Shown piece after piece: positions 4,485 to 38,726 of a stretch of DNA of 64,000 bases. A model generated the notes under the pieces. The model made no database searches and was not told the DNA's origin. It was given only the letters and a program-made list of their open reading frames with translations. Source of the DNA: an uncultured bacterium (GTDB lineage Bacteria; Patescibacteriota; Minisyncoccia; UBA6257; 2-01-FULL-56-20). Position 1 is the stretch's first letter, and each line of letters opens with the position of its first letter. The stretch covers positions 129,274 to 193,273 of the forward strand of contig CAVYIK010000003.1 in the NCBI GenBank assembly GCA_963768625.1, read 5' to 3'. Both the position numbers and the translations under genes were made by a program.

Positions 4485-5066
4485 TTAAAACGGTTTAAGG
4501 GTAATCATGCCTTCCGTTATGAGCTTCATGATCTTCTCGCGTAACGCTTGTTCTGCATTGGTAAGCCCCATTGCACGCGGCAGAGGGCGGGGTGATAAAA
4601 GATAATAAGGGAGCACGCCGGCCGGGATATTCCTCAAAATCGGTTCTCCGGAAAGCGTAGTGACCCTGATGCCCATTTGGGCAAACCGGCGGGCTACCTG
4701 CGGCTTCACCTCTCCGATCCCCCATTCGCGCCGTTTCCCAAGCGCGTGGAGGATCGCGGTATATACGAGCGCTTCGGAGAGATCCTGAACCTTCACTGCC
4801 CATCGTCCGAGCTCTACGATCTTTGTTCGTTCGAAAACCCCGGGAAATGTCTTATAGTCCAGCGCGTAGGTCTTTTCAAGAGAAAAAGCCTCGCCACTGC
4901 TCAGCGAAAGCCCTATCGCTCCGACGAGATCACCTCTGTCCCAGGCGGCGAAGACGATTCCCGGCAAAGCATATGCATCACTGCCATACCGTTCATGCAT
5001 CGTCCGCTGGACAAAAATGGCCACGCTGCTTCTTTCGCTTTCTTCCATACGACGAATCATTATCAT
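4485..5066 (-). CDS. hypothetical protein, possibly an acyl-CoA N-acyltransferase fold (LuxI / N-acyl amino acid synthase / T_hemolysin-like)
   Basis: 193-aa ORF with a VELGRWAV motif resembling the E-x-S-R-x-A-V motif of LuxI-type acyltransferases. Weak evidence. Confidence 0.3.
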   Translation of the reverse strand: MIMIRRMEESERSSVAIFVQRTMHERYGSDAYALPGIVFAAWDRGDLVGAIGLSLSSGEAFSLEKTYALDYKTFPGVFERTKIVELGRWAVKVQDLSEALVYTAILHALGKRREWGIGEVKPQVARRFAQMGIRVTTLSGEPILRNIPAGVLPYYLLSPRPLPRAMGLTNAEQALREKIMKLITEGMITLKPF

Positions 5067-5849: not shown

Positions 5850-6245
5850 ATGGCTGACGATATCAATAAAATCCCCCGACCGCTCAACATCCTTGTGGTT
5901 GATGACGAAAGAATGTTCAGGGATGTGGTGGCGTCCCGTCTTGATAGGGCAGGATTCCGCGTAGAAACCGCGCAAGACGGCGCAACGGCCCTCGCGAAAC
6001 TGCAGCAAAAAAAGTTCGACCTTGTGGTGCTCGACATCGTCATGCCCGGCCTGAGCGGATTCGATGTCCTGCGGGAAGTAAGAGATAAAGACATCGAGAC
6101 GAAGATCATCATGCTCTCCATCTTGCGGCAAGAAGAGGACGTGCGCCGCGCGAAAGAACTGGGGGCGAGCGAATGCTTCGGGAAGCTATCCCCCGCCTTC
6201 ATGGACGACGTGGCGAAATACGCGGAACAACTGAGCCTTCAATAA
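5850..6245 (+). CDS. response regulator, stand-alone receiver (CheY-like) domain
   Basis: ILVVDDE...DLVVLDIVMPGLSGFDVLREVR and a conserved K region in a 131-aa ORF. Confidence 0.8.
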   Translation: MADDINKIPRPLNILVVDDERMFRDVVASRLDRAGFRVETAQDGATALAKLQQKKFDLVVLDIVMPGLSGFDVLREVRDKDIETKIIMLSILRQEEDVRRAKELGASECFGKLSPAFMDDVAKYAEQLSLQ

Positions 6246-7723: not shown

Positions 7724-10700
7724 ATGCCTAAATTCGTCCACCTTCATACGCATTCCCATTATTCCCTTCTTGACGGCCTTTCAAAGATAGATCCGCTCAT
7801 AAAGCGCACGAAAGAGCTCGGCATGGACGCCGTCGCCCTTACCGACCATGGCGCGCTCTACGGCGCCGTGGAGTTTTATAAGGCGGCGAAGAAGAGCGGC
7901 ATGAAGCCGATCCTCGGCGTTGAGACCTACGTCGCGCCGCGCGACCGGTTTTCCAAAGAAGCAAGCGAAAAATATTACCACCTGGTCCTCCTCTGCGAGA
8001 ACAAGACGGGGTGGAAGAATCTCGATCAAACTCGTTTCAAAGGCCCACCTTGAAGGATTTTATTACCGCCCGCGCGTGGACAAGGACCTGCTCCGCGAAT
8101 ATCACGAGGGGCTGATCGCGCTTTCCGGCATGCCTTGGCGGCGAGATTGGGCAAGCGCTCCTTGCCGGGCGATTCGAAGAAGCGAAGAGGATCGCACTTG
8201 AATATCGCGATCTCTTCGGCGCGGAGAATTATTTCCTGGAGGTCCAAAAGCATCCCGCACGTTCCCGATTCCGAGCAGATAGAGCCGCTCCTCGTAAAGC
8301 TTTCCGACGAGACCGGCATCCCGCTCGTCGCGACCCAGGACAGCCACTACCTCCGTTCGGAAGACAACGAATATCACGACGTGCTGCTCGCCGTGCAGAC
8401 CGGCAACAAGCTGGCGGACGACGACCGGATGACCATGAAAGAGGATGATTTTTCGCTCCTCTCGCCGGAGGCGATGGCGGAAAAGTTCGCCCATATTCCC
8501 GGCGGCACGAGGCCATGCGCACCGCGGAGATCGCTGCGCGCTGCAACGTGGAACTTGAAGCTGGGGAAAGTACTGCTCCCCAATTTCCCGAAACCGGAAG
8601 GAAAAACCGCGAACGCCTATCTCCGCGAGCTCGTGGAGGAACGGCTACCGAAAAAGATTCCCGCCCGAGACGCAGACCAAAGAAATGGACGAGCGGCTGG
8701 AATACGAGCTCGGCGTCATTGAAAAGACCGGTTTCGCGGATTACTTCTTGATCGTCCAAGACCTCATCACCTGGGCAAAGGCGCATGGCATCGCCGTGGG
8801 GCCGGGCAGGGGCTCGGCAGCGGGCAGCTTGGTGTCCTACGTGCCTTGGACATCACCGACCTCGATCCCCTCACCTACGGGCTCCTCTTTGAGCGTTTCC
8901 TGAACCCGGAGCGCATCCAGATGCCGGACATCGACATAGACTTCGCCGACAAGCGGCGCGACGAGGTGCTCGCGTACGCCCGCGAGAAATATGGCGAGGA
9001 CCGAGTCGCGCGCATCATCACGTTCGGGACGATGGCGGCGCGCGCCGCGATCCGCGATGCCGGCCGCGCAATGGGCTACTCGTACGCCTTCTGCGACCAG
9101 ATCGCGAAATTGATTCCCTTCAATCCCACACAAGGCATGAAGGAGGGGTGGCTGGATGAGTGCCTGAGGAAAGTGGCTGAGCTGCGTGCGCTCTATGACG
9201 CGAAATGCGGAAGCGAAAAAATTGATCGATACCGCGCGTCATCTGGAGGGCGTGGCGCGGCACGCATCGGTCCATGCCTGCGGCACCGTGATCGCCAAGG
9301 AACCGCTCATTGAGCGCGTGCCGCTGCAGTTCGCGCCGCAGGAAAAGGACATCATGATCACGCAATTCGAGATGCACGCCATTGAAGACCTCGGTCTTCT
9401 GAAGATCGACCTTCTGGGACTCAAGAACCTCACGTATCATCGAAGACGCCATCCGCCTCATAAAAGAGCTCCACGGCGAGACCGTGGACATCTCGAATAT
9501 CCCGCTTGACGACAAGAAAACCTTCGACCTCCTCCAGAAAGCCGATACGACCGGCATCTTCCAGTTCGAATCGAGCGGCATGCGCCGGTACATGAAAGAG
9601 ATAAAACCGACCGAGCCTTGAGGACCTGATCGCCCTCGTGGCCCTCTTCCGACCCGGGCCGATGGAACTGATCCCATCCTTCATCAAACGCAAGCACGGC
9701 GAAGAGAAGATCGCCTATCTCCATCCCAAGCTTGAGCCCATCCTCAAAAACACCTACGGGGTCGGCGTGTACCAGGAACAAATGATGCAGATCGCCCGCG
9801 ACCTTGCGGGCTACACGCTCCCCGAAGCGGACACGCTCCGCAAAGCGATCGGCAAGAAGATCAAGTCGCTCCTTGACGAACAGGCCGTAAAGCTCGTCGG
9901 CGGCATGATCAAGAACGGCATCCCCGAACGGACCGCGAAGGCCATCTGGGAGCTCTTCCCGCCATTCGCCCGGTACGGGTTCAATAAGTCGCACGCCGCC
10001 TGCTACGCCCTCATCGGCTACCAAACGGCCTACCTGAAGGCCCACTATCCCGAAGAATTCATGGCGGCGCTCCTGAACGCCGAGGTGAGCGACATAGAGC
10101 GGATCTCGTTCCTTATCCAGGAAGCGAAGCAATCCGGGCTTGAGATCCTGCCGCCGGACATCAAGAAAAGCTTCGTCAACGTTCACGCCGGAAGGCGAAA
10201 AGATCCGCTTCGGCCTTGAAGCGGTAAAGAACGTGGGCTCGGAGATCACAAAAGCGATCATAGAAGAGCGAACGCGCCGCGGCCCGTTCAAGAGCTTTGA
10301 GGAAGTGCTCATGCGCATCCAGCATAAGGACCTGAACAAGAAATCAATCGAAAGCCTGGTCAAAGCGGGCGCGTTCGATTCGCTCGGCATCGAGCGTAAC
10401 CAGGCACTCCAGAACATGGACGACATCCTTCGCTTCGCGGTCGCCGCGCGGAGGAACGGCGGCGCGCAGAGCGGTGCGAGCTCGCTCTTCGGCGACACGA
10501 TGCCCGCCGCCGCGCTCAAGCTGAAGCCCGCGCCGCCCGCGACGAACGCCGAAAAGCTCATCTGGGAAAAGGAGCTGATCGGATTCTATCTCTCCGAACA
10601 TCCCCTCGCAGCTCACGCCGAGACGACTGAGAGCGTCGGCGTAAAACCCATTGCCGAACTCATGGCGATGAAGAACGAACGTCTCCTCGTGCGCACGGCC

Positions 10701-10928: not shown

Positions 10929-11319
10929 GGCTGTTGTGATATTTGTGCGGCTCGTGCGGCGCAAGGACAACGATCTCAACGTCCCAATCAAAATCGGGGA
11001 GATGTTCCTCGAGATCGCGCTTGAGCGCGGCTTGGTCATATCCGAGCGCGATCACGCCGGGGCGATATTTCTTCACCACCCCATAGTCACCAAGCTCGGC
11101 GTCTCCCGGAACGGCCGTATCGGCAAGATCTTCCGTAGCGAGCGCCTCTATCCTCTCTTTTGTGTTCCTGCGCGGCGGATGATTTTTCAATTGTTCCACG
11201 ACCGCATCTTGCGCGACCGCCACGATCAGATAATTGCCCCGCAACCGCGCCTGCTTAAGAAACGCCCGATGGCCCTCATGAATACCATCGAACGTGCCGA
11301 AGACCAAAACCTTTTTCAT
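10921..11319 (-). CDS. cytidylyltransferase-like nucleotidyltransferase (HxGH family; FAD synthase / RibL-like)
   Basis: [21 protein letters not shown] carries the HxGH motif of the nucleotidyltransferase superfamily. About 133 aa. Confidence 0.55.
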   Translation of the reverse strand: MKKVLVFGTFDGIHEGHRAFLKQARLRGNYLIVAVAQDAVVEQLKNHPPRRNTKERIEALATEDLADTAVPGDAELGDYGVVKKYRPGVIALGYDQAALKRDLEEHLPDFDWDVEIVVLAPHEPHKYHNSLR

Positions 11320-25837: not shown

Positions 25838-26397
25838 TTATTTCCTGATCTCGATCAGCCCGCCGCGCGCGCCCGGCACCGCACCGCGGAGGAATATCAA
25901 ATTTTTCTCTTTATCAATATCGGCGACAACCAAGTTCTTCACCGTCACGCGATCCGTACCCATATGGCCCGCCATGCGGCGCCCTGTGACGACGCGCTGG
26001 AATGCCGTGCGAGCCGATGGAACCCGGCGCGCGATGACGGTTCTTCTGCCCGTGCGTCTTCGGTCCGCCGGCAAAACCATGCCGCTTCACCGTACCCTGG
26101 AAACCGCGGCCCTTCGTCACGCCGCTCACGCGGACCTTTTCTCCCGCCTTGAACGACTCAACGGTCGACCGCATCGCCCACATTGAACTTCGCGGCCTCC
26201 ACCGGATTCGCCGGCCGATTCCGGAATTCGCGCTTTTTCCTGCCAAGCGAAACCTGGACGGCCTCATAGCCGTCCCGTTCCTTAGTGCGCACGATCGCCA
26301 CCTTGTTCGGTTCCGCCAAAACCACCGTGACGGGAACCACCTTCCCCTCCTTCCAGATCTGCGTCATTTTCAGTTTTTTGCCGAGAATGAACGACAT
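25838..26397 (-). CDS. rplC: 50S ribosomal protein L3, two frameshifts
   Basis: [25 protein letters not shown]; [25 protein letters not shown]; [15 protein letters not shown]. Confidence 0.8.
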
Positions 26398-26419
26398 AAA
26401 AAATCCGGTTTTCGCCGGA
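26398..26419 (-). promoter_or_regulatory. terminator-like hairpin plus U6 abutting the rplC start codon (candidate attenuator)
   Basis: Minus strand reads UCCGG-CGAAAA-CCGGA followed by UUUUUU then AUG. It lies about 130 nt downstream of a sigma70-like promoter. Confidence 0.45.
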
Positions 26420-26539
26420 AGTCCATGCCAACGCCTGCCCGAACCCGCCCTAAGCGGGATCAGTGCCTAAAGAAAACGAAATTCGTCTTCCAGAGCGCGT
26501 AAATATTGGCATATAACTTCCGAGGAAACCTTGGTTGAA

Positions 26540-26567
26540 AGTATAGCAGAACAGCCAAAAGTGTCAA
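26540..26567 (-). promoter_or_regulatory. sigma70-like promoter for rplC and downstream r-protein genes
   Basis: Minus strand TTGACA, 16-nt spacer, TATACT. Confidence 0.5.
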
Positions 26568-26640
26568 TCTGGAGGCGGAAAAGAAAGAGCGGCTCGCTTG
26601 GGGCGGGCCGCTGTTAGTGAAAACCGATCGAAATTGCACA

Positions 26641-27051
26641 TTATCTGCGCAGCTTTATCGGCACAAGTTCACTGAGGCGCGAGAGCATCTTGGCTACAGC
26701 GGGAAAAACCGGATCATCCGCTGATACTCCGCGCGGGAACGATGAGACTTGGATCCCTTGTCGGTTTTCCCGGCCGTTGCTCGTGATACTGATTACTTCG
26801 CCTAAATAAGGAGAATAAATCGTTAACACTCCGGGTTCCGCGGGACTGTCGTGAGCTTTGAATGTAATGCATCCTCCCTCCAACGAAGCAGAATGCAACT
26901 TGCATCCGGGATAGCACTCGGTAGTTTTTGCTTCTCCCTTCTTGAATTCGTCGAGTAAAGTTTGCAGCACCGCTCTTGGTTCCATGTGGCCCTCCCTCTG
27001 TCTGCCTGCGATCATAATCTTTGATGAGTGAGATTTCAAGCCCCTCCGCAC
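26641..27051 (-). CDS. hypothetical protein
   Basis: 136-aa ORF in the lower-GC insertion between rpsJ and rplC; no motif recognised. Confidence 0.4.
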   Translation of the reverse strand: MRRGLKSHSSKIMIAGRQREGHMEPRAVLQTLLDEFKKGEAKTTECYPGCKLHSASLEGGCITFKAHDSPAEPGVLTIYSPYLGEVISITSNGRENRQGIQVSSFPRGVSADDPVFPAVAKMLSRLSELVPIKLRR

Positions 27052-27639
27052 TCAGACCTTATCCTTCAATGCTATGCCGTCCATCTTGATAATGGAAAAG
27101 TGTTCGCCTTTTCTCTCGAGCTCTGCAAAGCCACAGTTTTCAATTTGCACATCACCCAATTTTATGACCTCCCTAAAGATGAACGATATGGGACCGCCGT
27201 GAGATAAAACGCCGATCGTCTTATAAGGCAAACTGGTTATTTTATCCAAGGCTTTCCTGACCCGCTCCCCAAAACGCTCGTAGTCTTCGCTCTCCGGCAC
27301 GGAATGGCGGCGCTGTTTCAGCGCTTCCACATGTTCGGGATATCTTTCCTTCGCGTTCGTCTTCACCATGCCCGTTAAAATACCGTACATATTCCGCTCG
27401 CGGATATCATGAACAACATCGATTTTGCAACCTATTTTTTCAGCAACGATTCTTGCCGTTTCCTGAGCACGAATCCTCGGACTGCAAAAGATGACTTCAA
27501 TACCTGAACCTACAAGCTTTTCAGCAAGTTTCTTTGATTGTTCCTTGCCTTCATCGGTAAGATGGTCGTCATAATCGCCGCCATAGCGATCCTCCACGTC
27601 CCCTGTTGTTTTGCCGTGACGGATGAGATAGATTTTCAT
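27052..27639 (-). CDS. histidine phosphatase family protein (phosphoglycerate mutase-like)
   Basis: N-terminal LIRHGKT (RHG catalytic motif) and a C-terminal LSHGG-like motif. Confidence 0.7.
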   Translation of the reverse strand: MKIYLIRHGKTTGDVEDRYGGDYDDHLTDEGKEQSKKLAEKLVGSGIEVIFCSPRIRAQETARIVAEKIGCKIDVVHDIRERNMYGILTGMVKTNAKERYPEHVEALKQRRHSVPESEDYERFGERVRKALDKITSLPYKTIGVLSHGGPISFIFREVIKLGDVQIENCGFAELERKGEHFSIIKMDGIALKDKV

Positions 27640-28232
27640 GACTTCGTTTCCATGTCCTTCTTCCTTTCCGCCGCAAGAGAATAAAACAGTTCTTTAGTAG
27701 AAGGCGAGCACAGCGGACGGCGCACAAGTTTTTCGTCATTTATCCAAAAATCATAGCTTTGCTCTGGCGTCATGCCCATCGATCTCGCAGCCATCTCAAA
27801 AGCATACCAGCTTGTCTGCGGCCAGATAAAATCCAAGTCGTTGAAAAGCGCCATCTCTTTGCATTCCTTGAATGGAGAATCGTCATTAAGCACCCAATTA
27901 TCGTGCACGCCAATATAATGCACGATCTTTTTTGTAATCTCCGAGTCATAATCCACTTCTTTAAGTATTTTTTCTGCAATCCTTGCGCCCTCACGCATAT
28001 GCACGATTTTCGTCTCTTTGCTCTTTACGTTTGGGTTCTTTTCGTCTACTGCGGAATAGCCAATATCGTGCAAGATAACGATCGGCAAAAGAAGCCTTTT
28101 GTTAAAACCTTCCTTATCTGCGATCTTCTCCGCTTCTCCCATCATCCACTCAATATGAGGTACGTCATATAACCTGCCTTGGAGATAATAAGGTTTTGCT
28201 AACTCCCAAATCTTTAGATATATGGAATCCAT
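27636..28232 (-). CDS. HD domain phosphohydrolase
   Basis: ILHDIGY contains the HD dyad; further His/Asp ligands downstream. The 217-aa ORF is trimmed to the internal Met. AT-rich. Confidence 0.65.
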   Translation of the reverse strand: MDSIYLKIWELAKPYYLQGRLYDVPHIEWMMGEAEKIADKEGFNKRLLLPIVILHDIGYSAVDEKNPNVKSKETKIVHMREGARIAEKILKEVDYDSEITKKIVHYIGVHDNWVLNDDSPFKECKEMALFNDLDFIWPQTSWYAFEMAARSMGMTPEQSYDFWINDEKLVRRPLCSPSTKELFYSLAAERKKDMETKS

Positions 28233-28307
28233 ATTTTTGATAATAGCACCTTTCTTTGACCCACTGCGGGCCAACAAAAAACCGCCCAAGCGGGCGGTTT
28301 TTTGTAC

Positions 28308-28639: not shown

Positions 28640-29839
28640 TTATTTGGTGATCTTCGTCACCGCGCCAGCGCCCACTGTCTTGCCTCCCTCGCGGATGGCA
28701 AAGCGCTGTTTCTCTTCAAGCGCAACGGGCGAGATCAATTTGACGCTCAACTTCACCGTGTCGCCCGGCATTACCATTTCCATGCCCTGAGGCAAGGTCA
28801 CTTCGCCGGTCACATCGGTCGTCCTGATGTAGAACTGCGGTTTGTATCCGGCGAAGAACGGCGAGTGGCGTCCGCCTTCCTCCTTCGAAAGCACATAGAC
28901 CTCTGCTTCGAATTCGGTGTGCGGCGTTACGGTCCCCGGCTTCGCGATCACCTGGCCGCGCTCCACGTCTTCTTTCTTCAAGCCCCGGAGCAAGGCGCCG
29001 ATGTTGTCGCCGGCCATGCCTTCGTCCAAAAGCTTGTTGAACATTTCAATGCCCGTAATGACGGTTTTCGCCGTCGGTTTCAAACCGACGATCTCCACTT
29101 CTTCGTTCACTTTTACTTTTCCACGCTCCACGCGGCCAGTCACAACCGTGCCGCGGCCTTCAATCGAGAAGATGTCTTCGATCGGCATAAGGAACGGCTT
29201 GTCGATGTCGCGCACCGGGTCCGGAATGTAGTCATCCAGAGCCTTTACGAGGTCCAGGATCGGCTTCGCCTCCGGGCTGTCCGCCGAAGCGGCGCTCAAC
29301 GCCTTCAAGGCCGAACCGCGGATGACAGGCGTATTGTCGCCATCGTAGTGGTACTTCTTCAGAAGCTCGCGCACCTCGGATTCAACGAGGTCAATGAGCT
29401 CCGGGTCGTCCACCTGGTCGCACTTATTGAGGAACACGACGATCTTCGGCACGCCAACCTGGTACGCAAGCAAGATGTGCTCCCGCGTCTGCGGCATCGG
29501 GCCGTCGGTCGCGGCAACCACGAGAATCGCACCGTCCATCTGGGCGGCGCCCGTGATCATGTTCTTGATGTAGTCCGCGTGTCCCGGCGCGTCAATGTGC
29601 GCGTAGTGGCGCTTCTCCGACTCGTACTCCGAGTGGTGCAGGGCGATCGTAATACCGCGCGCTTTCTCTTCCGGCGCGTTGTCGATCTGGTCAACACCCT
29701 CTTCTTTCTTTGCGAGACCCTTTTTGAACAAGATGTGTGTGATCGCGGCGGTCAAGGTCGTCTTTCCGTGGTCAACGTGCCCGATCGTGCCGACGTTCAC
29801 GTGCGGCTTCGCTCGGTTAAATTTTTCTTTTTCTGCCAT
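28640..29839 (-). CDS. tuf: elongation factor Tu
   Basis: 399 aa, intact; [26 protein letters not shown]. Confidence 0.95.
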
Positions 29840-29974
29840 GGTGTTTTAGATTATTTTTTAATTTTTTTAAAGCGGGCTTGCTAGTTCCCGCAACTCACTT
29901 TTCCCTCTCCCTCCCAAAGGACATTAGCCAATCGACCTAAAAAGGATCCCCCGGGTAAGGATGGTACGAAGGTT

Positions 29975-30004
29975 AGTGTAAGCCAAATCCGGGCCTTTTG
30001 TCAA
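29975..30004 (-). promoter_or_regulatory. sigma70-like promoter upstream of tuf
   Basis: Minus strand TTGACA, 18-nt spacer, TACACT, about 140 nt upstream of the tuf ATG. A perfect DnaA-box 9-mer TGTGGATAA lies at 30026..30034. Confidence 0.4.
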
Positions 30005-30076
30005 ATCGGGGCCCCTGTGGATTCTGTGGATAAAATCAGGGGGCGCTTTTAAGATTAAATTTTCATTAAATAATGC

Positions 30077-30104
30077 TTGACCTGCTCGGCTCTCTTGGTA
30101 AAAT
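30077..30104 (+). promoter_or_regulatory. sigma70-like promoter on plus strand (TTGACC, 16-nt spacer, TAAAAT)
   Basis: Near-consensus -35 and -10. No plus-strand ORF follows; an intrinsic terminator lies about 30 nt downstream of the predicted TSS. Confidence 0.45.
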
Positions 30105-30132
30105 GTATGTATCTTTGGGATTACCCACTCAC

Positions 30133-30159
30133 CCCGCCTTCGAGGCGGGAGTATTTTTT
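30133..30159 (+). terminator. intrinsic terminator: CCCGCC-UUCGA-GGCGGG followed by U-rich tract
   Basis: GC stem followed by TATTTTTTATT on the plus strand. Its 3' U-tract abuts the stop codon of minus-strand gene 30158..30556. Confidence 0.5.
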
Positions 30160-30556
30160 ATTGGCAATAAAAATTTAGGAAGGCGGCCTTAATAAGGTCA
30201 ATATTAGCGTCCGTTAACATTCCGATCTTGCTTCTCAGGCGGCTTCTGTCCAAGCTCCTTACCTGATTAAGAATGGCTCTGCCTTCCCTACCGCCATAGC
30301 GTATCGGCACATACCAGCTTCCTTCTTTTTGTCGAGTGGTAAGCGGTATAGCCAAAAATCCATCGGCATTGAATCTTTTGAATATCAGAACTGGGCGGCT
30401 AAAATTATGATCCTTTCCAAAAATCTCCACGCCAACGTTCACCCCTATGCTGCACCACCAAATTTCCCCCTCTTTAAAAAGGACTGGCTCTCTCTGATTT
30501 CTAAGCAAAATCTGTGTCTTACACCAATCCAAAAGGGCGAAGATATAATCAATCAT
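30158..30556 (-). CDS. type II toxin-antitoxin toxin, MazF/PemK-like (putative)
   Basis: 132-aa ORF whose pattern GEIWW...RPVLIF...AIPLTT...NQVRSLDRSRL...IG aligns with the MazF/Kid fold motifs. AT-rich accessory context. No convincing antitoxin ORF upstream. Confidence 0.45.
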   Translation of the reverse strand: MIDYIFALLDWCKTQILLRNQREPVLFKEGEIWWCSIGVNVGVEIFGKDHNFSRPVLIFKRFNADGFLAIPLTTRQKEGSWYVPIRYGGREGRAILNQVRSLDRSRLRSKIGMLTDANIDLIKAAFLNFYCQ

Positions 30557-30727
30557 GCAACCACACTACTACTTCACCGATTAAATTTTTCTAAAAACGC
30601 GCACGGGCCTGGACGATTTTCGAACGATAATGAAATTGGCTTCTCTTTTGTCCGAACCGTGAAATATTGATAATTGGATTGGGCCATGATATAACACGCT
30701 CAGTAAGCATAGGAAAGAGAGGAAGCG

Positions 30728-31036
30728 ATGGAACTGCTGAAATCTTGGGGAGCAACTTGGACCCCTGCTTTACATTACGCTATTGACTTCAGTTGCCGGT
30801 GCGGCTTCGAGCTGCCATTCAAACCCGAAAATCGCATACCGTACCTAGTGGGATTTTCTATGGAAGGGCCGCCCAGCAATAGAATATGCACTGGTGATGT
30901 TGTTGGTGTGCAGATTTTCCAGTGCCCTCAATGTTTCGAGATGTTCTGGTTTCATATGGGGAATCTCGCTGCGGCGTTCTATGCAATCAACGCACCACAA
31001 TGGCCGAAATGGTCCACTATGCCCCGCGACAGATAA
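30728..31036 (+). CDS. hypothetical Cys-rich (zinc-ribbon-like) protein
   Basis: 102-aa ORF with CRCG...CPQC. Flanked by 25-nt direct repeats GCACrGGCCTGGACGATyTTCGAAC at 30601 and 31076. Confidence 0.35.
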   Translation: MELLKSWGATWTPALHYAIDFSCRCGFELPFKPENRIPYLVGFSMEGPPSNRICTGDVVGVQIFQCPQCFEMFWFHMGNLAAAFYAINAPQWPKWSTMPRDR

Positions 31037-31145
31037 GGCCCCACGCTTTGCTGTTCGCGGGGTCTTTTCTTTTGTGCACAGGCCTGGACGATCTTCGAAC
31101 TGCTTTATTATCTTATACGGCGAATAAGTTTTATCGTACGCGTAC

Positions 31146-31439
31146 TTGACGTATATATTAATGAAAGTTATACTATGCCCAGCGTCTGCTAGAGGTTTTA
31201 CCTCCAAAGGAGAGACTGTCGTGCTAAAGAAGCTCAAGAATCGGTTTTGGCGCATCCCTATGATCTACGTCATTTCCGCGATGATCGCTTTCTCGGGGGT
31301 TGCCGCCGATCATCGGTGGTATAGCCTGGTTGTTATCTTCGGTCTTATGTCTCTTGTCGTTACGATCGCGACAGTAACTGATGGGTTCGATCAGCTGAAC
31401 ACCGGTTGTGGGTCCGCATTTATCAAGAAAGGAGGTTGA
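31146..31439 (+). CDS. hypothetical small membrane protein
   Basis: 97-aa ORF with two hydrophobic segments, followed by an intrinsic terminator. Confidence 0.4.
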
Positions 31440-33747
31440 TCGAGCGAGGGAAAACATTTCCGGAACATCGAAAGATGTTCCTTTTTTGTGCGCAGGAAAG
31501 GATTCGAACTGAAATTTGAGAATGTGGCTTCGCGCATAAACTATCCTTGAGGGGCATCTCGGAGCCGCGAAGGCGGCGAGAGCGAGGTGCGCTCCGAGCA
31601 CGGAGCGACACCGTCCCCGAAAGGATGGTTTGTGCGCGAAGCCTATCTCTTTTTCCTTCGATGATCAGCTGCGCCACGTTGTTCGGCGTCGGCTCATAGT
31701 GATCAAATTCCATCGTGAAGCTTCCGCGGCCCTGGGACATGGAGCGGAGCTCGGTCGCGTAGCCGAACATTTCAGACAAGGGCACTTTCGCGTCGATGAC
31801 TTTCAACCCCGGCCGGTCGCCAAGCGATTCTATGCGGCCGCGCTTTGAGTTCAATTGGCCCGTCACCTCGCCCAAAAAGTCCGGCGGGACAAGCACCTGC
31901 AATTTCATGATCGGCTCCAAGATCACCGGCTTTGCGCGCTTCGCGGCTTCCTGAAACGCAAGCGATCCCGCCATCTTGAACGCCATTTCCGAAGAGTCCA
32001 CTTCGTGGAAAGAACCGTCAAAAAGCGTCACCTCCACGTCCGTCACCGGATAGTGGGCGAGAATGCCGCGCGTGAGCGCCTCCTCCACGCCTTTTTCGGT
32101 AGGATTGATGAACTCCTTCGGGACCGTGCCGCCCTTGATCTCATCAAGGAACACGAAGCCCTGGCCGCGCTCGAGCGGGCGGATCTTGAGCCATACGTGG
32201 CCGTACTGGCCGCGGCCACCGGACTGTTTGATATATTTCCCTTCCGCTTCCGCTTCACCCATGATCGTTTCCTTGTATGCCACCTGCGGCCGCCCGACGT
32301 TCGCCGCCACGCCGAACTCCCGCTTCATGCGGTCCACGATAATCTCCAAGTGCAGTTCGCCCATACCGGAAATGATGGTCTCGCCCGTGTCCGGATCCCC
32401 CGCCACGCGGAAGGTCGGATCCTCTTCGGCCAGGCGGTGCAACGCCGTGCCCATTTTTTCCTGGTCAGCTTTTGTTTTCGGCTCAATGCGGATGCCAATG
32501 ACGGGCTCGGGGAACGTAATTTTTTCCAAAACGATCGGCGAATCCGGATCGCAAAGCGTGTCCCCCGTCGTCGTATTCTTCAGGCCCACGATCGCCGCGA
32601 TCTCACCCGCATATACCTCCTCCACCTCTTCGCGGTCGTTTGCGTGCATGCGAACCACGCGGCCGATGCGTTCCTGGTTGTTTTTCGATGAATTCAAAAT
32701 GTATGAACCGCGCTTCAAGACGCCGGAATAGTTTCTGAAGAACGCGAGCGTGCCCACGTACGGGTCGGTTGCGATCTTGAACGCGAGCCCGGACAACGGT
32801 TCGCTGTCAATCGGGCGGCGTTCTACCTCCGCGCCTGTCTTGAGGTCGTGTCCTTTTACCGGCGGCAGGTCGGTCGGCGCGGGAAGATAATCCACCACGG
32901 CATCCAGCATGAACTGCACGCCCTTGTTCTTTAGCGCGGACCCGCAGAAGACCGGCACGATCTTGTTCGCGATGACTGCTTTGCGGAGCGTCTTCCTCAA
33001 ATCCTCAATGCCGATATCCTTTCCGTCCAAATACATCGCCATCACCACGTCGTCGTTTTCCGCGATCTTTTCAATAAGTTCATGGCGGTGTTTTTGAACG
33101 TCCGCCTTCATGTCGTCCGGAATGGGCATTTCCACGATCTTTTCGCCGTGCTCTCCTTCAAAGGCAAATGCCTTGTCCAGTAAAAGATCTACGATGCCCC
33201 TGAAATTCCCCTCAAGACCGATCGGCAGCTGCACCGGGAGCGCGTACTGCGTAAGACGGTCTTTGATGGACTGGAAACTATTCACAAAGCTCGCGCCCAT
33301 GCGGTCCAATTTATTGATGAAGCAAATGCGCGGCACATTATATTCGTCCGCATAGCGCCAGTTCGTTTCGGACTGCGGTTCCACACCCGCGACGCCGTCA
33401 AAGACGACGACCGCGCCGTCCAAAACGCGCAGCGACCGCTTCACCTCCACCGTAAAATCGATGTGTCCCGGCGTGTCAATAAGGTTGATCTGATGCTCAA
33501 AATTCTTGTCGTGGTTCCGTTCGGTCGGGATCCAGAACGCGGTCGTCGCTGCCGAAGTGATCGTGATGCCACGCTCGCGCTCCTGCTCCATCCAGTCCAT
33601 CACGGTGTCGCCCGTGTGCACCTCGCCGATCTTGTGCGAAACGCCGGTATAGAAAAGCACCCGCTCGGAGACGGTCGTCTTCCCGGCATCAATGTGCGCA
33701 ATGATACCGATATTGCGCACCTTTTCAATAGGATATTTTCTGGGCAT
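31423..33747 (-). CDS. fusA: elongation factor G; annotated ORF carries a probably artefactual ~75-aa C-terminal extension
   Basis: AHIDAGKTT and all five EF-G domains. The canonical C-terminus ...[11 protein letters not shown] is followed by an Arg/Ser-rich tail. One extra A in the A5 run near 31650..31654 would give ...GKKR-stop. Confidence 0.95.
31462..31487 (+). terminator. intrinsic terminator GGAACAUC-GAAA-GAUGUUCC followed by U6
   Basis: Perfect 8-bp stem with a GAAA loop, then TTTTTTG. Confidence 0.6.
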
Positions 33748-34821: not shown

Positions 34822-34885
34822 CAGGTCCACCAGGCAAGCAAAAAGGGTTTGGGAGGAGTACTCGGAAGGGCTCCTTCCAAACCCT
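34822..34885 (+). repeat. long perfect hairpin, copy 1 of 3 (conserved loop UACUCGGAAGGG, 26-bp stem)
   Basis: GGCAAGCAAAAAGGGTTTGGGAGGAG - loop - CTCCTTCCAAACCCTTTTTGCTTGCC, immediately after tRNA-Ala. Confidence 0.8.
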
Positions 34886-35106
34886 TTTTGCTTGCCTGGT
34901 GGCCTCCTCGTTGTGGTGGAAGCGAACCCGAGCAGAACCCCGTGTAGGAAGGAGCGCGCGAAGCGCGGCGGGTGGGAAACCGAGGGTTTCCCAGATCGGG
35001 GGTCGGGGTGCTGCGACAGGGTTCGATTCCCTCCGACGGGCCTTTTGTTTTGGCTAAAAAAAGACTGCGGCGGCGGGGGTTAGCCGCGCGTCGCAGTCAG
35101 AATGCT

Positions 35107-38650: not shown

Positions 38651-38726
38651 AAGCAGCCAGAAGGAAGTAGCTTTGGAGAGAGTACTCGGAAGGGCTCTCT
38701 CCAAAGCTACTTCCTTCTGGCTGCTT
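38651..38726 (+). repeat. long perfect hairpin, copy 2 of 3 (same conserved loop, different covarying arms)
   Basis: ...CAGCCAGAAGGAAGTAGCTTTGGAGAGAG - UACUCGGAAGGG - CTCTCTCCAAAGCTACTTCCTTCTGGCTG..., directly after the recG stop. Confidence 0.8.

Follow-up and report, generated by a model that had tools for sequence, protein, structure and literature searches.

The window, by which we mean the whole 64,000-nucleotide stretch of DNA analyzed (contig CAVYIK010000003.1, from an uncultured bacterium of the Patescibacteria, or candidate phyla radiation, CPR), carries a minus-strand ribosomal gene cluster of the str/S10 type with the order rpsL, rpsG, fusA, tuf, rpsJ. Between fusA (33747 to ~31645 for the homologous part, minus strand, assigned by open reading frame (ORF) and homology) and tuf (29839-28640, minus strand, from the ORF list) lies a spacer of ~1.8 kb. 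It contains the gene for a 132-amino acid (aa) endoribonuclease of the MazF/PemK family (30158-30556, minus strand) and, facing the end of this gene, a predicted small RNA (sRNA) gene on the plus strand (30111-30159). We propose that the toxin gene and the convergent sRNA gene constitute a compact toxin/RNA-antitoxin module of ~545 bp (30053-30597, both strands) with a type I-like architecture, a reading whose probability we put at roughly 0.58. The spacer also holds a gene for a zinc-ribbon-like protein, a small membrane ORF and 25-nt direct repeats, which are described after the module.

The spacer sequence is reproduced in a second public assembly (locus L164, sample ERR11594402), with 100% identity over window positions 29741-31586, and in a further public assembly (L092, IMG 3300010379), with 99.5% identity over 29754-30989. 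Since two other assemblies carry the same DNA, the insertion is no assembly artifact. The closest relatives of the fusA product, elongation factor G (EF-G), in a scan of 185,579 species genomes were CPR metagenome-assembled genomes with 60-75% identity, which places the organism in this phylum but near none of its sequenced members. The GC content of the spacer is 0.41-0.52, compared to 0.55-0.61 in fusA and tuf. An earlier note on this DNA had described lower-GC accessory DNA between tuf and fusA and had called for a comparison with relatives; both its composition and its absence from the relatives sampled are borne out, with the spacer content recurring in none of the 80 fusA loci compared from the genome scan, but its extent is ~1.8 kb rather than the 1.3 kb given there.

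A MazF/PemK-family gene with no protein partner

By sequence and predicted structure, the 132-aa protein is a member of the PemK/MazF family. It matches Pfam PemK_toxin (PF02452) over residues 28-126 with 44.2 bits against a cut-off of 23.1, PHROG 9567 ('MazF-like growth inhibitor') matches it with E = 1e-13, and the profile of its family finds the Bacillus subtilis EndoA/MazF structures in the PDB (E = 1e-6). An AlphaFold (AF2) model with 55 homologues as input has a predicted local distance difference test score (pLDDT) of 90 and shows the SH3-like barrel fold of MazF/Kid; Foldseek comparisons with 1ne8, 4mdx and 5ckd gave a probability of 1.0 and target-normalized template-modeling (TM) scores of 0.74-0.79. 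The RPV motif aligns with the RPV of EndoA, and R54, invariant among the 55 family sequences, and T73, conserved in at least 90% of them, align with the EndoA catalytic positions, which we take to be R25 and T48 (R29 and T52 in Escherichia coli MazF). A MazF/Kid-like identity, as had been noticed earlier from the motif order, is thereby confirmed, and membership of a non-toxin family is not indicated. The family search returned 148 matches of ~130-160 aa, characterized by an N-terminal extension with an invariant Trp. In the model, this extension is a helix (residues 2-20, pLDDT 90-97, invariant W11) specific to the subfamily, and it could have a role of its own. Toxin proteins within the CPR clade are just ~50% identical to one another; besides the Patescibacteria, relatives are found on phage-like contigs and on plasmids of Campylobacter, Helicobacter and Bacteroides.

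The presumed toxin promoter, read from the sequence, occupies 30563-30597 (minus strand), with a -10-like TAGTGT (30563-30568) 6 nt before the ATG and the AT motif TTTTTAGAAAAATTTAAT at 30580-30597. Among 17 distinct homologue upstream regions, TGnTAnnnT was found 6-9 nt (mostly 6-7 nt) before the ATG in 14, a TTTAR-N6-TTTAAT-like motif further upstream was found in most, and a Shine-Dalgarno sequence was present in none. Given a -10-like element this close to the start codon and no Shine-Dalgarno sequence, the toxin mRNA is predicted to be leaderless and transcribed from an extended -10 promoter. Comparison with the sRNA promoter described below implies that the toxin promoter would be the weaker of the two.

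In all ten independent genomic contexts, the toxin homologue is a single gene wedged between housekeeping genes, with neighbors that include pilB and pilC, dcd and glyA, infA-rpsM-rpsK downstream, rpoC leading to dnaG-rpoD, or a downstream tRNA synthetase gene. The preceding called gene lies 39-233 bp away, mostly at less than 100 bp, and the space between is free of called genes in all ten contexts, hence no upstream antitoxin ORF is conserved. An adjacent co-oriented protein antitoxin, by which type II systems are recognized, was accordingly not found in the window or in the ten contexts. Two neighbors in the window are placed such that one of them might still be a protein antitoxin, a 37-aa ORF lying 18 bp upstream of the toxin gene on the same strand and the divergent zinc-ribbon gene 171 bp away. 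The 37-aa ORF and four other small flanking ORFs had no Pfam match at E ≤ 1, in keeping with the earlier observation that no antitoxin, and no MazE-like feature in the 37-aa ORF, could be recognized, and no zinc-ribbon homologue occurs in any MazF locus. We rejected both candidates given that neither is conserved beside toxin homologues, and with so little upstream space in most homologue loci we consider a protein antitoxin very improbable.

The convergent small-RNA element

Comparison of the homologue flanks revealed a conserved element directly past the toxin stop codon, on the opposite strand. It consists of an AT-rich sequence resembling an UP (upstream promoter) element, ATTAAAnnnTCATTAAA, then TTGAC and TAnnnT with 16 nt between them and, ~7-10 nt on, UUUGGGAUUWCCCAC, a GC-rich hairpin and a U-rich tail. 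In the window, the predicted promoter at 30053-30104 (plus strand; 10/12 matches in a promoter scan, and invariance across copies) is composed of the UP-like GATTAAATTTTCATTAAAT (30053-30071), a -35 TTGACC (30077-30082) and a -10 TAAAAT (30099-30104) with TG upstream. The predicted sRNA of ~49 nt, a candidate RNA antitoxin in view of its fold, conservation and linkage, comprises a 5´ hairpin UGGG-AUUA-CCCA (30116-30127), a terminator hairpin (30133-30149) and a U run (30154-30159) whose last 2 nt lie within the toxin stop codon (30158-30160). Its folding energy is -18.3 kcal/mol (z = -3.2), and no Rfam family was found there at either gathering or E-value thresholds. The toxin had been described as 'orphan or atypically partnered'; the first term does not fit, whereas the second does, the likely partner, which had been missed, being this conserved convergent gene at ~30111-30159 on the plus strand. 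Likewise, the search for a small antitoxin ORF or RNA that had been recommended gave no conserved antitoxin ORF, but a conserved predicted RNA gene downstream.

The convergent sigma-70 promoter (TTGAC, 16 nt, TAnnnT) lies just past the toxin stop codon in 10/10 contexts, and a two-hairpin RNA of ~45-55 nt ending at the toxin stop codon is present in 9/10. Since terminator stem lengths differ between copies, each RNA was folded separately and the element was represented by an nhmmer profile. All 23 aligned copies have TTGAC, TAnnnT and TTGGGAT..CC without variation, and 22 of the 23 fold into the two-hairpin architecture. The terminator stems differ entirely in sequence and length among copies while pairing is always kept, and hardly any change is seen in the 5´ hairpin (UGGG-AUUW-CCCA) within the CPR clade. 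The layout is the same in more distant relatives, found on viral-type contigs, with 5´ stems of UGCC/GGCA, GGCC/GGCC and UCCC/GGGA. Pairing in the 5´ hairpin is complete (100%), 4/4 pairs show compensatory change, and the score was reached by 0/500 shuffles; this count was made on equal-length, hand-registered windows, and its covariation comes entirely from four sequences. The presence of a conserved peptide across the sRNA region was considered and rejected by eye, the frame being broken in one copy (L090) and the hairpin lengths being variable.

Linkage of the element to the toxin was assessed by scanning metagenome contigs with a DNA pattern drawn solely from the element and thus blind to the protein. 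The scan returned 58 loci, of which 19 were true copies, recognized by the hairpin and GGTGGG, and the remainder were chance matches. A MazF-like ORF ends within ~50 nt of the element in 13 of the 16 copies with enough flanking DNA. Over all copies compared, the association is nearly exclusive, with 22/25 distinct copies directly behind a MazF-like ORF; the three without a toxin are in the related loci L106 and L119 and a second copy in L118. The nhmmer profile, built from the 23-sequence alignment, has a single match in the window (30051-30164, E = 1.7e-21) and none in the 80 fusA loci (~0.9 Mb), and the DNA pattern had no match in viral contigs. Other nhmmer matches elsewhere cover the promoter half alone, which indicates that the promoter type is general and that the RNA part is specific to the modules. 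Homologues with 40-46% identity (L151, L154) retain the RNA, and the type of 5´ hairpin changes together with the toxin clade. For one homologue (L152, 48% identity over 77% of the length) only the convergent promoter was found, with no two-hairpin RNA.

Additional copies were noted in several loci. The second sRNA of L118 (2271-2386) lies beside a gene for a haloacid dehalogenase (HAD) hydrolase, with a few bases of a toxin 3´ end left, and looks like the remnant of an orphaned antitoxin. Two contigs carry two toxin and sRNA modules each, at 4587-4711 and 8874-8995 in L105 and at 5904-6029 and 7725-7850 in L136. Downstream of a MazF-like gene on a viral-type contig (L158) there are two tandem sRNA-like units, UUUUGGCCAUUAGGCC... 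and UUUGGCCACUAGGCC..., each with a terminator hairpin, which may represent a duplicated antitoxin gene. The promoter half (ATTAAAnnnTCATTAAA with TTGAC) occurs without the RNA part at 8103-8161, 11003-11060 and 11966-12004 in L105, at 4822-4876 and 7061-7117 in L136 and at 7961-8010 in L121, which suggests that it is a type of strong promoter used widely in these organisms.

Other contents of the fusA-tuf spacer

The 102-aa four-cysteine, zinc-ribbon-like protein (30728-31036, plus strand; supported by an HMMER family and conserved Cys residues) belongs, by its sequence conservation, to a real, uncharacterized family of small proteins. The profile search recommended in the earlier note, run exhaustively with HMMER, gave 130 cluster representatives at E ≤ 1e-3 with four conserved cysteines, for an ORF that a word-indexed search had suggested to be an orphan. 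W7, G8, C23, C66, C69 and W92 are invariant and C25 is present in at least 90%, within the pattern KSWGV..C.C..VGF..ECP.CFE.FWFH..WPK. The protein matches no Pfam family, its predicted fold (AF2, pLDDT 90) has no analogue in the PDB or BFVD, and nothing similar was found in phage and plasmid collections. Some family members are fused at the C-terminus to unknown domains of ~100 aa. The nearest homologue (L167 115-393, 63% identity) lies beside a Fic/helix-turn-helix (HTH) pair in another accessory region and shares with the window gene the promoter-like TTGATA-17-TATAAC (30667-30695 in the window); the window gene is followed by a terminator-like hairpin (31045-31063) and a T run.

The small membrane ORF (31146-31439, plus strand) has 97 aa in the ORF list and ~73 aa (GVTG...) from the likelier GTG start at 31221, which is preceded by AAGGAG. 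It has a promoter-like TTGACG-17-TATACT (31146-31174) and, as had been reported, a terminator of its own, seen as a terminator-like hairpin (31462-31481) followed by a T run. The sole homologue found is an identical copy, and a weak match to DUF6095 (E = 0.014) is below threshold. Nearer tuf, a promoter-like TTGACA-18-TACACT (29975-30004, minus strand), a consensus match alone, could drive tuf apart from the interrupted operon.

The 102-aa ORF is bracketed, as described previously, by the 25-nt direct repeats R1 (GCACGGGCCTGGACGATTTTCGAAC, 30601-30625) and R2 (GCACAGGCCTGGACGATCTTCGAAC, 31076-31100), located by a repeat scan. They are 23/25 identical, far more than chance would give (0.01 matches expected), and a degenerate third copy, TTTTGTGCGCAGG..GGATTCGAAC (31484-31504; repeat family D6, read from the sequence), follows the membrane ORF. 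We rejected an origin of the repeats as tRNA 3´-end (attachment site, att) fragments, given that none of the seven tRNAs of the window matches and the T-arm is unpaired, as well as an origin as inverted copies of the fusA 3´ end, for which the best local alignment was equaled by 57/300 shuffles.

These repeats are one argument for the view taken in the earlier note that the whole spacer is one small mobile or defense island, with the repeats as the ends of an inserted cassette. The degenerate third copy after the next unit would suggest serial insertions, the GC content is below that of the flanks, none of the 80 related loci has the genes and repeats of the spacer, and the nearest zinc-ribbon homologue lies beside the Fic/HTH pair. 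However, no integrase, transposase, recombinase or other mobility gene is present among the spacer ORFs (29840-31645), PADLOC defense models matched none of seven proteins, and the repeats do not occur beside the L167 homologue, in viral contigs or elsewhere in the window. Co-occurrence of the three transcription units was seen nowhere else, and the fusA-tuf gap, described below, is variable across the phylum and filled with ordinary genes. We found no evidence that the spacer is an island acting as a unit and regard this view as improbable; from these comparisons we see the spacer as a permissive site in which three small units were acquired separately.

The gap itself does not behave as assumed previously. 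fusA and tuf had been taken to be normally adjacent, which is true outside the CPR, where the gap in the 80-locus set is 15-224 bp and mostly less than 150 bp, but fails in the Patescibacteria, where it ranges from ~70 bp to above 5 kb and is often ~400-1000 bp, and where the bigger gaps contain ordinary genes encoding surface proteins, pilins or purD/purN. The gap is a phylum-wide hotspot of variable content, and an insertion there is in itself not unusual; operon-adjacency rules of model bacteria do not carry over to the Patescibacteria. In several Patescibacteria (L005, L012, L013, L035, L037, L038, L040, L061 and L066), a small conserved protein of ~95-125 aa with an N-terminus like MSKQLKQVINLAKKTGDRIIVFD...YENL is encoded in the gap directly upstream of tuf; it is absent from the window. 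A second lower-GC insertion in the ribosomal cluster, between rpsJ and rplC (~26400-28300), carries genes for an HD-domain protein (217 aa) and a histidine phosphatase (195 aa) and a 136-aa ORF without a Pfam match.

Two reading-frame anomalies were noted in the cluster. The fusA ORF has no in-frame stop and continues for 75 codons to 31423 (minus strand), while its relatives terminate in ..IIEGKAKK* or ..IIEGRKK*. A TAG at 31645-31643 is one base out of the fusA frame, and the protein would end in ..EGKKR* if the A5 run at 31650-31654 were one A longer; the missing stop (31643-31654) is probably a homopolymer assembly error and not a real extension. rplC (25838-26397, minus strand) is broken over three frames, due either to further assembly frameshifts or to its being a pseudogene.

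Several long hairpins are also present. A 118-nt hairpin (31526-31643, minus strand; inverted repeat I1) with the core CTCGCCGCCTTCGCGGCTCCGAGA and a fold z of -7.7 begins at the G of the likely fusA stop codon and has no Rfam match. Hairpins with the same core and long, locus-specific arms occur in two other CPR loci (L085 2751-2920 and L105 ~2436-2560), and both in the window (fusA) and in L085 (a pilB-like gene) the stop codon of the preceding gene lies at the start of the arms or within them. Three near-perfect hairpins of 76 nt elsewhere in the window (34827-34902, 38651-38726 and 41911-41986) have variable 32-nt arms and the common center TTTGGRGNGAG-TACTCRGAAGGG-CTCYYTCCAAA. For two of the three, the start lies within the 3´-terminal part of a tRNA gene (Ala, Glu), and the distal arm therefore repeats this tRNA end in inverted form; no such hairpins were found in the other loci compared.

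Mode of action and comparison with known systems

In the proposed module, a leaderless toxin mRNA would be made from a weak -10-type promoter, and an sRNA of ~49 nt would be made from a strong promoter (UP-like sequence, consensus -35 and -10) and end at a terminator abutting the toxin stop codon. Since the toxin strand has no U run past the shared hairpin, the toxin mRNA is predicted to read through the sRNA gene and to be fully complementary to the sRNA. The sRNA would act as the antitoxin by pairing with the toxin mRNA at its 3´ end, where the mirrored hairpin loops would meet first, and pairing would lead to decay of the toxin mRNA or to blocked expression. This antisense mode would be that of the convergent type I systems of Firmicutes and probably also that of the cjrA RNA for the homologous toxin of the Campylobacter plasmid pVir (see below). 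Complementarity through readthrough, together with six loci in which the toxin ORF itself enters the sRNA region, leads us to favor antisense control at the 3´ end. The invariance of the 5´ hairpin, which is not needed for cis-antisense pairing, leaves room for direct recognition by the toxin or for kissing-loop kinetics. We infer from sequence comparisons the transcription of the sRNA, the activity of the toxin and its neutralization by the sRNA, as well as the mode in which this would occur.

Several points weigh against this proposal. The support is comparative throughout; the promoter and terminator of the sRNA are consensus matches alone, several copies have a weak U run behind the terminator, and the covariation count comes from the hand-registered windows described above. 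Folding energy does not tell the strands apart (mean difference 0; G-U pairs 14 vs 5), so we rejected strand assignment on this basis. No conserved pairing of the sRNA with the 5´ end of the toxin mRNA was detected over ten loci (mean z = -0.07), and action of the sRNA on the 5´ end of the leaderless mRNA was rejected accordingly. Because cis-antisense pairing requires no sequence conservation, the invariant 5´ hairpin points to a further constraint. With regard to pVir, the nhmmer profile of the CPR element has no match in the pVir loci L165 and L166, and the RNAs have no detectable similarity. The pVir PemK/MazF gene and its convergent sRNA CJpv3 are probably, though not certainly, the CjpT/CjrA type I pair of Shen et al. 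(2016, Mol Microbiol 101:909).

The further constraint on the 5´ hairpin would be accounted for if, as in type III systems, the sRNA bound the MazF-like protein directly as a pseudo-substrate or inhibitor, instead of or besides pairing with the mRNA. Consistent with such binding, the 5´ hairpin is near-invariant while the proteins are ~50% identical and the terminator varies, the hairpin type switches along with the toxin clade, three RNA gene copies persist without a toxin, as orphan antitoxins do, and type III toxins (ToxN) share the Kid/MazF-like fold. However, the tandem-repeat RNA and the upstream, same-strand layout that define known type III loci are both missing, the toxin is of the PemK family and not ToxN/AbiQ, and kissing-loop kinetics would equally account for conserved hairpins. 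Direct binding is therefore a possibility, although in our judgment an unlikely one. Comparably doubtful is the broader idea that a widespread MazF clade may have swapped its protein antitoxin for a short RNA whose 5´ hairpin the toxin itself recognizes, which would make the ~545-bp module a hybrid of types I and III and a selfish unit lodging between essential genes of very small genomes.

A different view would be that the toxin is a true orphan, the downstream element combining a terminator with an unrelated promoter or a regulatory one acting by transcriptional interference, and the toxin being kept harmless through low expression from a leaderless mRNA or through the N-terminal helix that it carries. 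The subfamily-specific helix with its invariant W11, the occurrence of UP-like and TTGAC promoters elsewhere in these contigs without the RNA part, and the L152 locus, with its convergent promoter but no two-hairpin RNA, would all fit such an orphan. Against this stand the confinement of the RNA-specific half of the element to these modules, the abundance of the pVir counterpart as a discrete 77-nt RNA, and the consideration that a promoter whose transcript stops at a hairpin after ~50 nt is most simply a small-RNA gene. We thus hold a true orphan to be quite improbable and retain the toxin/RNA-antitoxin module as our preferred interpretation.

Annotation pipelines call these genes orphaned 'type II toxins'; the comparison supplies a concrete candidate partner, an RNA of ~50 nt with a defined promoter, ends and structure. 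If the module is as proposed, RNA-controlled MazF toxins would extend from one Campylobacter plasmid case to a clade across the Patescibacteria, which have tiny genomes and few known defense or regulatory systems, and one toxin fold would be able to switch between protein and RNA antidotes. 'Orphan toxin' calls warrant a check for conserved non-coding neighbors.

The module resembles the type II systems MazEF, PemIK and Kid-Kis in toxin family, fold and the residues at catalytic positions. It differs from them in having no upstream co-transcribed antitoxin of the MazE/AbrB or ribbon-helix-helix (RHH) type, and in the extra conserved N-terminal helix of the toxin and the predicted leaderless mRNA. 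As in the type III systems ToxIN, CptIN and TenpIN, the endoribonuclease has a Kid/MazF-like fold and its candidate partner is an RNA rather than a protein. In contrast to those systems, whose antitoxin RNA is a tandem-repeat array upstream on the toxin strand, set apart from the toxin by a terminator, the RNA here is single-copy, downstream and convergent, no tandem repeats were found around the gene, and the toxin is outside the ToxN family.

The convergent type I systems of Firmicutes, such as txpA/RatA, bsrG/SR4 and par RNAI/RNAII, have toxin and antitoxin transcripts with overlapping 3´ ends. The predicted module shares with them facing transcription, the 3´ overlap, a stronger antitoxin promoter and a shared hairpin terminator. 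The toxins of these systems are small hydrophobic peptides, whereas the window toxin is a 132-aa soluble protein with an RNase fold, from a family whose usual antitoxins are proteins, and so departs from the type I definition in this respect. Nuclease toxins under type I control are found only as exceptions, namely SymE and RalR (PMC8167048).

The closest counterpart is on the Campylobacter jejuni 81-176 plasmid pVir. A tblastn search against plasmids identified relatives of the toxin in Campylobacter, Helicobacter, Nitratiruptor and Bacteroides that carry the annotation of solo 'type II PemK/MazF toxins', among them the pVir PemK/MazF gene at 30634-31038 (WP_011117588.1), whose product is 31% identical to the window toxin (E = 3e-17) in an alignment that runs from residue ~10, and thus from the N-terminal Trp (W11), onward. 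The pVir sRNA CJpv3, 77 nt in length and detected by northern analysis, runs from 31119 to 31043 on the strand opposite to the toxin gene (Dugar et al., PMC3656092 Table S12), and its start coincides with the transcription start site that we had predicted from the promoter in a sister plasmid. The cjrA RNA of pVir has been cited as an experimentally validated type I antitoxin (PMC7826846). Both loci have a homologous toxin that includes the W-containing N-terminal extension, in both the toxin is solo without an annotated antitoxin, and in both it is faced by a convergent sRNA, detected in pVir and predicted in the window, whose 3´ end is 5 nt from the toxin stop in pVir (31043 vs 31038, measured) and would overlap it by 2 nt in the window. 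They differ in that the pVir sRNA has 77 nt and three hairpins, compared to ~49 nt and two in the window, in that the pVir sRNA promoter is an extended -10 of the Campylobacter type, and in that the pVir module is plasmid-borne whereas the CPR module is chromosomal, between housekeeping genes. The arrangement thus has a known precedent in Campylobacter pVir, and what the sequence comparison adds is a conserved candidate RNA partner for a clade of seemingly orphan MazF toxins.

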